A DNA stretch of 64,000 nucleotides from an uncultured archaeon (GTDB lineage Archaea > Thermoproteota > Nitrososphaeria > Nitrososphaerales > Gagatemarchaeaceae): positions 640,001-704,000 of the forward strand of contig CAWFOU010000001.1 in the NCBI GenBank assembly GCA_963817525.1, read 5' to 3'. The stretch's first letter is position 1. Each line of letters begins with the position of its first letter. This document shows, piece after piece, positions 34,544-38,537 of this stretch. A program made the translations under genes and the position numbers. Under the pieces are notes generated by a model, which ran no database searches, was not told the origin of the DNA, and worked only from the letters and a program-made list of their open reading frames with translations.

Positions 34544-35512
34544 ATGGTCAGCGCGGGCAAAGTGACTCGAACGTCTGCCAAGGCGGGGATGGCGGGGCGG
34601 TCCCTGCTGTCGGTCTCAGACCTCTCCGCGCGCGAGCTGTCGGCCATGCTGGACCGGATGAAGTCCCTGAAGCCGGCGATCAAGAGGCGAGAGCCGCTGT
34701 CGGACCTCCGCGGCAAGGCCGTAGGGATGCTCTTTGAGAAGCCCTCCACCAGGACAAGGACGAGCTTCGAGGTGGCGACGGTGAGGTTGGGCGGGTTCCC
34801 CGTCTATCTGGCGTCCGAGGAGCTGCAGACGAGCCGAGGGGAGCCCGTCAAGGACACGGCGAGGGTGCTCGGTAGCTACCTCGACGTCATAGTGGGCAGG
34901 GTGTTCTCGCACGAGACCCTTGCCACGATGGCCGAGTTCTCGGGCGTGCCGGTCCTCAACGGCCTCAGCGACCTAGAGCACCCCACGCAGGTGATCTCCG
35001 ACCTCTTCACCATCAGCGAGAGCAAGGGGAAGCTGAAGGGGCTGACCCTCTCCTTCATCGGGGACGGCGACAACGTCTGCAACTCCCTGCTGCTGGGGGC
35101 GTCCCTCATGGGGATGAACGCGGTAGCGGCGTGTCCCAACGGCTACTCGCCGAACCCTGACATACTCCGCAGGGCAGAGGAGAACGCCAAGGAGTCTGGG
35201 TCGACCGTGAGGGTGGTCGACGACCCCAAGGAGGCGGCGGTAGACTCGGACGTGCTCTACACCGACGTCTGGGTGAGCATGGGGGAGGAGAACGAGAGGG
35301 CCAGGCGCATGCGCGCCTTCCGCGGGTTCCAGATAAACTCGGAGATCCTGAAGCTCGCCTCCAGGAACGCGATAGTTATGCACTGCCTGCCCGCGCACCG
35401 GGGGCTGGAGATAACCGACGAGGTCATCGAGGGGAAGCAGTCCGTCGTGTGGAGGCAGGCCGAGAACAAGCTCTACGGCGCGGCAGCGGCCCTTGACTTT
35501 GTGACCGGGTGA
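34544..35512 (+). CDS. argF: Ornithine carbamoyltransferase
   Basis: STRTR, HPTQ, DVWVSMG, HCLP. Confidence 0.96.
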   Translation: MVSAGKVTRTSAKAGMAGRSLLSVSDLSARELSAMLDRMKSLKPAIKRREPLSDLRGKAVGMLFEKPSTRTRTSFEVATVRLGGFPVYLASEELQTSRGEPVKDTARVLGSYLDVIVGRVFSHETLATMAEFSGVPVLNGLSDLEHPTQVISDLFTISESKGKLKGLTLSFIGDGDNVCNSLLLGASLMGMNAVAACPNGYSPNPDILRRAEENAKESGSTVRVVDDPKEAAVDSDVLYTDVWVSMGEENERARRMRAFRGFQINSEILKLASRNAIVMHCLPAHRGLEITDEVIEGKQSVVWRQAENKLYGAAAALDFVTG

Positions 35513-35581
35513 GAGCGCCCGCCATCCCGCGGGTCCGGTGAGAAAGCATATCTATCGTTCGCGATTGGCGGGACTCAATCG

Positions 35582-36391
35582 TTGAAAATCAGGGACGCCC
35601 TGCCCCACGTCTTCAACAGGGCCTATCCGGTCCTGGACCCGAAGATGCCCATGCTGCCCGCCGTCTCCATGCTGCGCTTCCAGGTGATTGACGGCCTCCC
35701 CCTCGTCATCGACGTCACCACCTCGAGGCCGCGGGCCCTCCACGGGTACTCGCTGCTCAAGAGGCTGCTCGCGATCGGCCAGGGGGGGTTCTGGAAGTTC
35801 ATTGAGAGGCCATGCGAGGACGCGGCGCAGAGCATAGGCGTCGTAGGCGCGGACGAGAACCTGGAGCGACTGTTCGAGGTCTTCCTCAAGGAGCGGTTCG
35901 GGTTCGCATGGATAAGCGACACGGAGCGGACGGGGGTCCCCGTCAGCCTCGCGGACGTCCTCGAGCTCTACAAGAACGGGACGCTGGAGAGCGACCTCCA
36001 GGTCAAGGACGTGGCGTCGCCCATCTTCGCCCTCCCCGGGATGACGCCCCTCAGGAAGGCCCTGCTCTTCATGTTCAGCCACAGGTTCAGGCGGGTCTTC
36101 CTCTCGGCGGGGGGTGCGTTCATATCCGACCGCAGCATCATCAGCCACATTTTCAGCCCTGCGGTGCTGCACGACCTCGCCGCCAACCCGGACAACCTGC
36201 TGGAGCTTCCCATCGCTGAGATAGAGAAGAGCAGGCCGCGGAGGGTCCCCGGACGCACAACGCTCAAGGCGGCGGCCAACACCCTCGGAGGGGACATCGG
36301 GCAGTGCCTCACGTCTAGGGGGTCTGTCATCACCCCGTGGGACATCATCATGAAGCCGTGGGTGGCCAAGAAGCTCAGGATAAACAACTGA
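35582..36391 (+). CDS. CBS domain protein
   Basis: Degenerate CBS repeats (VKDVASPIFALPG; VITPWDII). Confidence 0.65.
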   Translation: MKIRDALPHVFNRAYPVLDPKMPMLPAVSMLRFQVIDGLPLVIDVTTSRPRALHGYSLLKRLLAIGQGGFWKFIERPCEDAAQSIGVVGADENLERLFEVFLKERFGFAWISDTERTGVPVSLADVLELYKNGTLESDLQVKDVASPIFALPGMTPLRKALLFMFSHRFRRVFLSAGGAFISDRSIISHIFSPAVLHDLAANPDNLLELPIAEIEKSRPRRVPGRTTLKAAANTLGGDIGQCLTSRGSVITPWDIIMKPWVAKKLRINN

Positions 36392-36464
36392 GCGCGGCTT
36401 CGGCTGTGGGGGATTGGAGTCGGCTGGCCCAGATTTGAACCGGAACCGGGGAAGCGAAGAAAGA

Positions 36465-36538
36465 TGGGTCAGGGGAGGTTTGAACTCCCGATTTCCGCCG
36501 TGTGAGAGCGGCGTCCTACCAGGCTAGACCACTGACCC
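36465..36538 (-). tRNA. tRNA-Val(CAC), intron-less, CCA not encoded
   Basis: Minus strand GGGTCAG-TG-GTCTAGCCTGGTAGGAC-G-CCGCT-CTCACAC-GGCGG-AAATC-GGGAG-TTCAAAC-CTCCC-CTGACCC-A folds as a cloverleaf; TTAAAA box at 36561-36566. Confidence 0.95.
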
Positions 36539-36629
36539 GGCGGCACCGCATGGGCAGCGCTTTTAAGACGAACGGTCGCTGAACTCTTCGATTTCACGCC
36601 AATTTCCTTCGTGGGCATTTTATCCCGGC

Positions 36630-37358
36630 TTGAGTCGGATGGGCGAAGATAAAGCTCCACGAGCTCCACTTATCGTGGCGATTCAGGAGTCAGATGATTT
36701 CGGCCACTACACGGACTGGCCTCAGCTCGCCGGCTACTTTGATGGTGACGGTAGCATAAGCATTCGGAGGACATCTCGAGGAAGACCGTTCACTCTCCTT
36801 CCGGCCTTAGAGTTTACCGACATGTCAAGACGACAAATAAGGATGGTGAAGGAATTCCTGCTTTCACGCGGGATTCGTACCGGTGCCATGACTAATCGAA
36901 CTGGCGCTTGGAGGGTAGAGGTGGGCACAATCGAGGGTGTGACGAGGGCCCTAACTGCCATGGTGCCTTTTCTTTTCAAGAAGAAGACAGAAGCAGGAGC
37001 GACGCTGGATTATCTGGCTGACAAGATAAGCGGCAATGAGTTCCAGAGAATCCTTAGGGCTGCCGTGCGCAGAGGAGATAGGGAGAGAGTCGCACCATTC
37101 ATCGACCTCCCGTGGACGAGAAGTGCGGGCGCCAAGAAGGCCATGGAGCTATCTTGGAAATTCGCCGGAGGTAAGCCCTTGCTCGGGCCGGAAGGCCAAC
37201 TCGAAATCATTCGTCGCTTCGGGGCGGGGCAGAGCCAACGGGGGATTGCAAGGTGTATGGGAATTTCCCGCGGCATGGTACGCCGGACGGTATCCCGACA
37301 TACGGCTCGCAAACCCCCCTCGCCCCGCCGAGTGAGAGCGGCGTCCAAACCAGGCTAG
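36630..37358 (+). CDS. Free-standing single-motif LAGLIDADG endonuclease with C-terminal HTH
   Basis: QLAGYFDGDGSI, PFLFKKK, GQSQRGIARCMGISRGMVRR; visibly less GC-rich than neighbours. Start may be a downstream GTG. Confidence 0.82.
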   Translation: MSRMGEDKAPRAPLIVAIQESDDFGHYTDWPQLAGYFDGDGSISIRRTSRGRPFTLLPALEFTDMSRRQIRMVKEFLLSRGIRTGAMTNRTGAWRVEVGTIEGVTRALTAMVPFLFKKKTEAGATLDYLADKISGNEFQRILRAAVRRGDRERVAPFIDLPWTRSAGAKKAMELSWKFAGGKPLLGPEGQLEIIRRFGAGQSQRGIARCMGISRGMVRRTVSRHTARKPPSPRRVRAASKPG

Positions 37359-37369
37359 ACGATCGGCCC
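37312..37369 (-). pseudogene. Degenerate 5' portion of a tRNA-Val(CAC)-like gene
   Basis: GGGCCGATCGTCTAGCCTGGTTTGGACGCCGCTCTCACTCGGCGG matches the D and anticodon arms of 36465-36538; no T-loop or 3' acceptor strand; TTAAAT box at 37396-37401. Confidence 0.75.
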
Positions 37370-37418
37370 AGGGACAGTGCGCGCCTTTCGAGCCGATTTA
37401 AGCTCTGGGTTCACTATT

Positions 37419-37586
37419 TTACTTCTTGAGCCCGACCGACCTGTTCTTCAGCCTCAGGACCGAGGCGTGGCACTTCCGGCACCTCGTTGCCGAGAGCGCG
37501 TTCCTCGCCCCGCAGCGCAGGCAGACCTTGAGGAAGAGCCGCCTCTTCTGGGCGATCTGCTTCTTTGTGACGTCGGCGATCGGCAT
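37419..37586 (-). CDS. rpl40e: 50S ribosomal protein L40e
   Basis: KVCLRCGARNALSATRCRKCH...LRLK; ATG at 37586. Confidence 0.93.
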   Translation of the reverse strand: MPIADVTKKQIAQKRRLFLKVCLRCGARNALSATRCRKCHASVLRLKNRSVGLKK

Positions 37587-37661
37587 CTCGTGGATTCGTT
37601 CCCAAGCCGTCAAGGACCCGCTTAAGGACTTTTCGAGCCGCGAAGCCCGGACGAGGTCTAC

Positions 37662-38537
37662 TCAGCGCCCCGCGCCCACCAGCACGGGTATCTCCGATGT
37701 CGTCCGGGCGACCCTCGCGCCGGCCCTGCTGAGCGAGGCGACCTTCGACTCGGCGGTCCCATAGTCGCCGTAGATTATCGCCCCTGCGTGGCCCATGTGC
37801 TTCTCCCTGGGAGCCGACCTTCCCGCGATGTAGGCGACCACGGGCTTTGCGAACCCGCTGTCGAGGATGTGCTCCGCCAACCTCTCCTCGGCGTCCCCGC
37901 CTATCTCCCCGACCACGACCACCGACCTCACCTCGTCCATTGTCGCGGCCCAGTCGAGGCACTCCGGTAAGGTCGTACAGTTCACAGGGTCTCCCCCCAC
38001 GCCCAGCGCCACGTGCTGTCCGAGGCCGCTCCTCGAGAGGGCGTCGGCCACCTCGTACATCAGCGTCCCGCTCCGGGAGAAGAGGGCGACCCCGCCCTCC
38101 CGAAAGGAGGGGGCGGGCATTATCCCGAGCTTCAGCTGCTTCGAAGGGACTATCACGCCAGGGGTGTTCGGACCTATCACCCGCGCTCCAGTCTCCTGGC
38201 AGAGGCGAATCATCTTCAAGGTGTCTCGGATGGGGACATGCTCCGTTATCGCGACGAGGAGCCGTACCCCCGCCCCCACCGCTTCCTCGGCGGCCGAAAG
38301 GAGAGTGGGAGCGGGCACGAAGAGCACCGAGGCCCTCGCGCCAGTCCTCTCGACGGCCTCCTTCACCGTGTCGAAGACGGGCACCCCCTCGACGACCATC
38401 CCGCCCTTGCCCGGCGTGACGCCCGCGGCCACCCTTGTGCCGTACTCGCGCATCAGCCCCGCGTGTAGGCTGCCGTACCTGCCGGTGAGACCCTGGACGA
38501 GGACCGGGTCGCCCTCCCCCGGCAGCGCGAAGCTCAA
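37662..38537 (-). CDS. sucD: Succinyl-CoA synthetase alpha subunit
   Basis: VQGLTG, IGPNTPG, SRSGTL, GEIGG, MGHAGA. Confidence 0.95.
   Translation of the reverse strand: MSFALPGEGDPVLVQGLTGRYGSLHAGLMREYGTRVAAGVTPGKGGMVVEGVPVFDTVKEAVERTGARASVLFVPAPTLLSAAEEAVGAGVRLLVAITEHVPIRDTLKMIRLCQETGARVIGPNTPGVIVPSKQLKLGIMPAPSFREGGVALFSRSGTLMYEVADALSRSGLGQHVALGVGGDPVNCTTLPECLDWAATMDEVRSVVVVGEIGGDAEERLAEHILDSGFAKPVVAYIAGRSAPREKHMGHAGAIIYGDYGTAESKVASLSRAGARVARTTSEIPVLVGAGR

Follow-up and report, generated by a model that had tools for sequence, protein, structure and literature searches.

How does a gene for a transfer RNA (tRNA) come to lie in two pieces with a second, complete tRNA of the same anticodon between them? 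The question is raised by a locus in a stretch of 64,000 nucleotides (nt; positions 640,001 to 704,000 of contig CAWFOU010000001.1, assembly GCA_963817525.1; hereafter the window) from an uncultured archaeon of the Gagatemarchaeaceae, in which a tRNA-Val(CAC) gene next to rpl40e is interrupted by a cassette. The cassette consists of an antisense gene for an I-CreI-like LAGLIDADG protein with a C-terminal helix-turn-helix (HTH), a divergent promoter, a complete tRNA-Val(CAC) and a T-rich trailer. The resident tRNA is referred to as type B and the nested one as type A; C and B′ denote further sequence types, G000 the genome that holds the window, G001 to G022 its relatives, and L-numbers the extracted loci. 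The best-supported reading, and in our judgement a probable one, is that a homing cassette with a replacement tRNA broke the resident type B gene by a course of cutting, homing and rescue. An earlier interpretation made from the letters of the window (the sequence-only reading), which saw a homing-endonuclease cassette between an intact tRNA and a decayed 5′ copy of it, is partly supported, being right in kind and wrong in one key detail.

Three tRNA pieces at one locus

Read in tRNA orientation, the locus runs from rpl40e through a TATA-like box, the 5′ part of type B, the antisense LAGLIDADG-HTH open reading frame (ORF), a second TATA-like box, the type A tRNA and its 15-nt trailer to the 3′ part of type B (Table 1). 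Every element on which the sequence-only reading was built is present, namely the intact tRNA, the 5′ fragment, the antisense ORF and two TATA-like boxes. There are three tRNA pieces rather than two, a 3′ remnant of the resident gene having been overlooked, and the view of the 5′ fragment as a copy of the intact tRNA has to be given up. The two sequences are equal at 33 of 36 positions over the D and anticodon arms (91.7% in blastn) and differ in the acceptor strand, which reads GGGCCGA in the fragment and GGGTCAG in the intact tRNA. The nested type A acceptor stem pairs with itself (GGGTCAG with CTGACCC), and the relatives’ counterpart of the 3′ remnant reads CCGGTTCAAATCCGGGTCGGCCCA, the exact pairing partner of GGGCCGA.

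The resident gene is split in the variable loop, with a 5′ piece that covers tRNA positions 1 to about 44, a 3′ piece that covers about 49 to 76, and an insert of 875 bp (36450-37324) between them. The 5′ piece holds the acceptor strand, the D arm and the anticodon arm, with the anticodon CAC at 37332-37334; its likeness to a tRNA ends past the 3′ strand of the anticodon stem, and it lies about 790 nt upstream of the intact tRNA in tRNA orientation. Its position 37 is mutated to T (37331), as had been noticed before, and in the 3′ piece 6 nt are duplicated and several bases substituted by comparison with the intact form; on these grounds both resident pieces are read as dead in G000. The two TATA-like boxes lie about 26-29 nt ahead of their respective tRNA starts, and relatives without the cassette have the same TATA-like element ahead of an intact tRNA. 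The trailer is read as part of the cassette because nearly the same trailer follows a different nested tRNA in G006.

Type A is the sole tRNA-Val(CAC) gene detected in the 2.8-Mb G000 assembly by whole-genome ARAGORN and blastn. On contig 7, ARAGORN called a second tRNA-Val(cac), with introns, which is in fact a long-arm tRNA wrongly assigned. The whole-genome ARAGORN run called only 33 tRNAs, several of them with implausible giant introns, and counts from that run are unreliable; a plain tRNA-Val(GAC) on contig 7 (about 1037709-1037786) was missed by it under the intron option and was found when the region was scanned alone.

No Rfam intron family matches in 35500-38500. The earlier statement that no integrase is nearby holds, in that no recombinase family was found at E ≤ 1e-5 in the cassette or among the 17 ORFs within about 10 kb. 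The neighbouring genes serve purine biosynthesis or encode ornithine carbamoyltransferase, SucCD, an aminoacyl-tRNA synthetase and similar housekeeping functions, and mcrA was not found in the G000 genome. A gene for a protein of 269 amino acids (aa) at 35582-36391 (+) matches no Pfam family, is 84-94% identical across the genus and is kept beside the tRNA-Val locus, on its downstream side.

Table 1. Features of the interrupted tRNA-Val(CAC) locus, in window coordinates
Feature	Position	Strand	Basis
Decayed type B 3′ remnant (T arm and 3′ acceptor strand)	36415-36449	-	Alignment with intact type B genes and relatives’ 3′ remnants
T-rich trailer, 15 nt, from nested tRNA to 3′ remnant	36450-36464	-	Near-identical in G022 and G006
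Complete nested type A tRNA-Val(CAC)	36465-36538	-	ARAGORN; Rfam tRNA, 61.5 bits
Divergent promoter region between nested tRNA and nuclease gene	36539-36629	.	Read from sequence
TATA-like CTTAAAAG, nested tRNA promoter	36560-36567		Read by eye
LAGLIDADG-HTH nuclease ORF, 242 aa	36630-37358	+	Pfam
Orphaned type B 5′ fragment, tRNA positions 1 to about 44	37325-37369	-	Near-identical to the intact type B 5′ part of G014 and G009
TATA-like CTTAAATC, orphaned resident promoter, 17 nt past the rpl40e stop codon	37395-37402	-	Read by eye
rpl40e, host flank	37419-37613	-	Pfam Ribosomal_L40e, weak (20.9 bits); conserved in all relatives

The nuclease and its family beside RNA genes

The ORF matches Pfam LAGLIDADG_3 at 24.9 bits against a cut-off of 22.5, and its C-terminal HTH matches Sigma70_r4, HTH_23 and HTH_7 below their cut-offs. 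The true start may lie at ATG 36639 or GTG 36675; in G022 an in-frame stop stands upstream of the GTG equivalent. At the other end, the ORF runs into the tRNA 5′ fragment, whose antisense supplies the stop and the last 11 or so codons. The sequence-only reading had already seen that the ORF takes its stop codon from within the fragment; the codon is TAG at 37356-37358, antisense of the D loop, and in 5 of 5 genomic orthologues the stop likewise comes from within the fragment. The C-terminus of many orthologues reads RVRAAS or a close variant, which is what the tRNA anticodon arm yields when translated in antisense, and the run-out into the tRNA fragment is thus a conserved trait.

Motif and fold are intact. 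Among 15 aligned sequences, the motif LAGYFDGDGS has invariant G36, D37 and G38 and a nearly invariant D35, and little or no variation is seen in GYFDGDG or in a KK..E..A motif. The AlphaFold2 (AF2) model, with a predicted local distance difference test (pLDDT) value of 82.5, has the order H E E H E E H, that is, the alpha-beta-beta-alpha-beta-beta-alpha LAGLIDADG core, beyond which come further helices, three of them forming an HTH. The best Foldseek matches are I-CreI (E 2.1e-7), I-CvuI, I-MsoI and I-Vdi141I; a profile search aligns I-CreI residues 13-112 (E 4.5e-6), and the invariant D37 and K115 align with the presumed catalytic Asp and Lys of I-CreI, which we take to be its residues D20 and K98. 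The ratio of nonsynonymous to synonymous substitution rates (dN/dS) is 0.14 between G000 and G022 and 0.08-0.14 in comparisons with G006, so the protein is under purifying selection. A prediction with two copies scored 0.78 (best of 3 controls, 0.00), with 100% of contacts shared between runs and a partner pLDDT of at least 86, values that may reflect likeness to solved I-CreI dimers; of proteins with solved structures, 20 of 30 one-chain pairs and 1 of 23 single chains attain the mark set for this score. The predicted interface includes residues 21-37, again with the proviso that likeness to solved I-CreI dimers may drive the result. On this modelling the nuclease may form an I-CreI-like homodimer.

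The protein belongs to a family that is narrow in distribution. A large protein collection holds 23 homologues, none of them named, and 400 other genomes of the phylum gave a single weak match outside the family or genus. Within the genus, the family list of 39 rows corresponds to 38 places, of which 37 were scanned and one was not included. Thirteen of the 37 lie within 250 nt of a non-coding RNA (ncRNA) gene, distributed as five beside tRNA-Val, two beside tRNA-Ile/Ala, three beside the RNA of the signal recognition particle (SRP) and three beside the RNA of ribonuclease P (RNase P); by a rough estimate of our own, not derived from a tool, about 1% of the genome is that close to such a gene. 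These 13 places represent four contexts, not 13 independent events. The homologue survey for tRNA adjacency that the sequence-only reading had called for found the orthologues always associated with tRNA-Val.

The SRP RNA-adjacent paralogues (L009 in G017, L011 in G010 and L012 in G009; two of the Rfam scores are below gathering, with E about 1e-18) and those adjacent to RNase P RNA (L008 in G020, L040 in G007 and L048 in G002) stand 100-230 nt from the RNA gene and are mostly divergent from it. At the RNase P RNA locus, an insert with a nuclease gene measures 785-837 nt in G020 and G007, against 84-136 nt at the empty site in G000; no nuclease remnant was found at the SRP RNA locus of G000, where tblastn matches were at chance level only. 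In the open-access literature searched, no report was found of homing endonuclease genes beside RNase P RNA or SRP RNA. Among the best 80 metagenome loci, 20 lie 0.8-1.4 kb from RNase P RNA and probably represent one orthologous position.

Two further members of the family were observed in G000. A 170-aa paralogue without a matched HTH part (contig 7, 1045254-1045685; L032 755-1183, minus) stands between tRNA-Ala(TGC), 75 nt away on the same strand, and tRNA-Ile(GAT), 161 nt away and divergent, and the arrangement is the same in G022 (L038). A member on contig 7 at 879412-880004 (L034) extends over two frames, with residues 27-42 and 54-225 matched separately, and is probably a frameshifted pseudogene.

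Filled, empty and deleted states among relatives

Forty relatives were searched and the loci of 17 were mapped. The sequence-only reading had predicted a single tRNA directly after rpl40e where the ORF is absent, and this arrangement is indeed seen in relatives. Intact type B follows rpl40e directly and without any insert in G018, and it is intact with a variable-loop insert of about 19-22 nt in G014 and G009. In a second subclade, the type B gene of G001, G002 and G015 is located after uppP, which separates it from rpl40e, and bears inserts at about 29/30 and 45/46; here G010 has the first insert only (about 29/30) and a B′-type T arm, and G020 a B′-type T arm with no insert.

The cassette with type B pieces on both sides is found in G000, G022, G019 and G006, where it encloses type A in the first three and type C with an anticodon-stem insert in G006. 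A fifth cassette genome, G021, has a 42-nt 5′ fragment with one mismatch to its nested tRNA, and no 3′ remnant was seen there. The uninterrupted type B pattern from anticodon arm to T arm occurs in 5 of 5 cassette-free genomes (G018, G014, G009, G001 and G015) and in 0 of 5 cassette genomes, which are 54-95% complete. In three relatives with differing endpoints, the nuclease has been lost and the incoming tRNA kept: in G012, a deletion of 735 nt relative to G006 has spared type C, the type B 3′ piece and a 5′ stub of 21 nt; in G008, only the cassette promoter accompanies type A; and in G017, the promoter on the rpl40e side is now joined to type A, with the type B 3′ piece still behind it. The tRNA-Val locus is thus polymorphic for presence and absence, with filled, empty and deleted states.

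Metagenome data reproduce the arrangement. On five contigs (L069, L070, L071, L072 and L107) the ORF stands beside the 5′ part of a nested tRNA-Val in 5 of 5 cases, and a separate 5′ fragment is found in 3 of the 5; L107 is cut inside the ORF, and the tRNA-Val pieces beside the ORF in L071 and L072 were found by motif scan only. Soil-metagenome data, which consist of contigs only and possibly come from the source sample, reproduce the junctions as well, for example with one contig across 37104-37900 and one across 36159-36508.

The tRNA-Val(CAC) gene is unusually variable for one genus, with at least four types (A, B, B′ with another T stem, and C; L019, L020, L025-L028, L015 and L017). Short inserts of about 16-22 nt occur in tRNA-Val at about 29/30 and 45/46, several of them ending in CGTCAAG or CGCCAAG, and are presumed to be non-canonical introns; folding of intron-bearing type B gave a cloverleaf with an extra hairpin, in which no clean bulge-helix-bulge could be assigned by eye. 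The insertion point of the cassette coincides with the place of a small insert in the intact type B genes of relatives, which could mean that the small inserts protect the site or that they are footprints.

Other genes also vary at this position. In G022 (L014 326-1447) and G018 (L021 1876-3015), the 269-aa neighbour is separated from the tRNA-Val locus by a 373-379-aa gene of unknown family, which G000 and the other mapped relatives lack there. A gene for a membrane protein of about 290 aa, with the N-terminus MQPTD..GVVQGISEWLPISS and presumably resembling undecaprenyl-diphosphatase, lies between rpl40e and tRNA-Val in the second subclade (G001, G002, G015, G010, G005 and G021; L025-L029 and L031). 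About 3.3 kb separate rpl40e from the cassette in G021.

The cassette has a history of its own. Between G000 and G022 the synonymous divergence (dS) of the nuclease gene is 0.236 over 163 synonymous sites, below the 0.74 of sucD and the 0.81 of the 269-aa neighbour, which points to lateral spread and to a cassette younger than its host flanks in this pair. Compared in windows of 60 nt, the two genomes are 88-97% identical over the nested tRNA and the ORF (97% in the nested tRNA region), 77-83% over the divergent promoter region and about 65-87%, mostly near 80%, over sucD. The relation is reversed between G000 and G006, with a dS of 3.1 for the nuclease and 0.73 for the neighbour; taken with the first pair, this indicates that the nuclease tree departs from that of the hosts and that the history of the cassette differs from theirs. 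As a marker of co-conversion rpl40e was rejected, its dS being low (0.2-0.75) between all species over 40 synonymous sites, too short and conserved a gene for this use. Viral contigs gave eight weak LAGLIDADG matches over short stretches (24-37% identity), among which no cassette beside an integrase with a matching attP was seen, without closer inspection.

Explanations and known systems

We infer that the enzyme cleaves DNA, that its target is an uninterrupted type B gene, cut in or near the variable loop or T arm, and that a copy with the cassette serves as template for repair of the break; with the type B 5′ and 3′ pieces as homology arms, the cassette would be copied in (homing). Given the differences of type A from type B in acceptor stem, variable loop and T stem, the carried tRNA would be spared by the nuclease and would make good the decoding function lost through the insertion. 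Later deletion of the nuclease would leave the incoming tRNA, with turnover of the tRNA allele as the net result. The minimal selfish unit of the sequence-only reading fares well in several respects: the cassette is free of integrase, centred on the LAGLIDADG-HTH gene, tied to rpl40e and tRNA-Val, and equipped with its own promoter. Its idea of rescue, that a supplied tRNA 5′ part restores the resident gene, is not supported at this locus; instead, a complete and different allele is carried and the resident is left as two non-overlapping dead pieces. The orphaned resident promoter may, as that reading suggested, drive antisense RNA across the nuclease gene and so silence it. The associated duplication of the tRNA 5′ part does not describe the G000 window and does describe G021, where a 42-nt repeat of the 5′ part, with one mismatch, flanks the ORF.

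Several observations weigh against the homing reading. Purifying selection also holds in lineages with synonymously saturated copies and would fit a host function too. The nested tRNA is inconstant, being type A in three genomes, an intron-bearing type C in G006 and a B-like, intron-bearing form in G021, which implies that the unit is modular or rebuilt and that G021 fits the 5′-duplication model better. The endpoint of the 5′ fragment varies as well, from about 44 in G000 and G022 through 42 in G021 and 38 in G006 to 35 in G019. No joint skipping the cassette was found over 35900-37900 in the contigs of four soil-metagenome runs from one study, at a depth of 2-5. In the wider family, no recognised ncRNA gene stands within 250 nt at 24 of the 37 places, only 4 of the best 80 metagenome loci lie within 400 nt of one by ARAGORN and nhmmer, and a self-blast for partial copies of SRP RNA or RNase P RNA next to the paralogues found none.

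The selection on the protein could also be expected if the family were a domesticated LAGLIDADG-HTH DNA-binding factor, such as a transcription factor, that serves the adjacent RNA genes, the broken tRNA then being an old and unrelated scar. Bacterial WhiA is such a combination of LAGLIDADG domains and an HTH. The added HTH, the repeatedly divergent placement of the gene at about 100-230 nt from ncRNA starts, the confinement of the family to one genus or family and a dN/dS that stays at 0.08-0.14 even between saturated copies all speak for this explanation. We nevertheless consider it unlikely, given that the residues aligned with the catalytic Asp and Lys of I-CreI are invariant, that presence varies among close relatives at both the tRNA-Val and the RNase P loci, that the comparison of G000 with G022 shows a cassette younger than the flanking genes, and that three relatives deleted the gene independently and without replacement.

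The homing reading must also be set against two explanations that start from the tRNA pieces. In one, the locus is the remnant of an integrase-type element in a tRNA gene, as in the model for Caldiarchaeum tRNA-Thr, with the recombinase lost and the LAGLIDADG gene a passenger. The direct repeat in G021 does resemble an attL/attR pair, and in the cited text on Caldiarchaeum (Sugahara et al. 2012, PMC3293823) a variant tRNA is described together with an insert of 1.8 kb and the 5′ fragment of a tRNA. It is a very unlikely account of the present locus: no recombinase family is found in the cassette or among the 17 ORFs within about 10 kb, the resident pieces do not overlap in G000, G022, G006 and G019 and leave no att-like repeat of the resident gene, and the cassette, only about 0.9 kb long and filled by the nuclease gene and the tRNA, has the same compact layout in every orthologue. 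An integrase island would have a tRNA rebuilt from host and element parts, whereas the working tRNA here is wholly cassette-borne. In the other, the type B pieces are the exons of a giant-intron tRNA or the halves of a split tRNA, with the nuclease and type A inside the intron. It would suit the insertion in the variable loop at about 45-47, where the type B genes of relatives carry an insert of about 17-22 nt, and the intact look of the 3′ pieces in G022, G006 and G019. Against it, both pieces are damaged in G000, the ORF is antisense to the tRNA, a genome-wide motif search found no match to a T arm plus TCGGCCC, the 3′ half that a trans-spliced tRNA of the kind considered by the sequence-only reading would need, and complementarity at the borders is not above that of shuffles at 4 of 4 loci (RNAduplex against 200 shuffles; z -0.43, +0.68, +0.94 and -0.05). 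We regard this last explanation as scarcely credible.

Beyond the single locus, it is a tentative possibility that the homing cassette is a natural ‘home-and-rescue’ drive, in which an I-CreI-like lineage with an HTH has specialised on the essential RNA genes of one archaeal genus (tRNA-Val, tRNA-Ile/Ala, RNase P RNA and SRP RNA) and its tRNA-Val member spreads by destroying the resident gene, with an uncuttable spare of its own. If so, repeated invasion and nuclease loss would explain the alleles A, B, B′ and C of tRNA-Val(CAC), the inserts at about 29/30 and 45/46 and the orphaned tRNA halves, and homing endonucleases would act directly to split tRNA genes and to add introns to them in archaea. 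Published models of how archaeal tRNA genes become split, permuted or oddly interrupted invoke, in the cited portions, ‘viral or mobile elements’ without naming them (PMC3218864, PMC3293823), and split tRNAs are put down to such elements in reviews and genome surveys (PMC3218864). The present locus names a concrete agent, and the steps, intact, cassette-broken and replaced after nuclease loss, are kept within one genus. A direct test of the idea would need one recombinant protein and four tRNA alleles. Should our inferences on cleavage and resistance hold, the enzyme would also offer a new scaffold of the I-CreI type, one with an added HTH and with specificity for the DNA of RNA genes.

Known systems offer partial parallels. 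The free-standing Seg and Mob endonucleases of phage T4, with SegB located in the T4 tRNA gene cluster, are encoded without intron or intein next to conserved genes, tRNA genes included, and are thought to spread by cutting nuclease-free alleles and co-converting the flanks. By analogy, the present locus would behave like such a free-standing homing endonuclease (‘intronless homing’), as treated in the cited parts of the literature (PMC13096335, PMC2790892). It differs in being chromosomal and archaeal, in an enzyme of the LAGLIDADG/I-CreI type with an HTH rather than of the GIY-YIG or HNH type, and in lying inside its presumed target gene and bringing a whole substitute copy.

In the open-access literature searched, no report was found of a homing endonuclease that carries a spare tRNA inside a broken tRNA gene, and the closest published natural case found is the tRNA-Thr(GGU) of Caldiarchaeum subterraneum. 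As far as the cited text describes it, a 5′ fragment with its promoter is followed by a 1.8-kb insert with a ‘putative recombinase’ and then by a variant full tRNA of the same anticodon, an order shared with the present locus, as are an insert size of 1-2 kb and an encoded DNA-binding protein with several genomic paralogues; the Caldiarchaeum tRNA also has an intron at 45/46 (PMC3293823). The same text reads the Caldiarchaeum insert as integrase- or transposon-type, on SVMProt and dinucleotide evidence only, and has the variant tRNA share its 3′ part with the original gene (PMC3293823), whereas the present cassette has a recognisable LAGLIDADG nuclease and a complete incoming tRNA, and the resident 3′ remnant is kept. 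In the ‘fractured genes’ of Dassa et al. (2009, PMC2677866), a conserved gene likewise stands in two halves with a free-standing homing endonuclease gene in the gap, and, in the portion cited, the halves are rejoined as protein by split inteins; here the broken gene encodes an RNA, no sign of rejoining was found, and function comes from the carried spare. The endonucleases of archaeal rRNA introns (I-Vdi141I, PDB 3e54; I-DmoI) are likewise archaeal LAGLIDADG enzymes that target structural RNA genes. Their ORFs are sense and lie inside spliced bulge-helix-bulge introns, whereas the present ORF is antisense and no splicing helix was found.

Synthetic ‘cleave-and-rescue’ and ‘home-and-rescue’ drives are engineered Cas9 systems in insects, in which a nuclease destroys a resident essential gene and a linked, recoded and uncuttable copy rescues the carriers. 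If cleavage by the enzyme and resistance of type A hold, the cassette would be a natural counterpart of these drives, with the difference that it is protein-guided and archaeal. To our knowledge, the logic of a nuclease joined to a spare copy is otherwise known only from engineered cleave-and-rescue drives.

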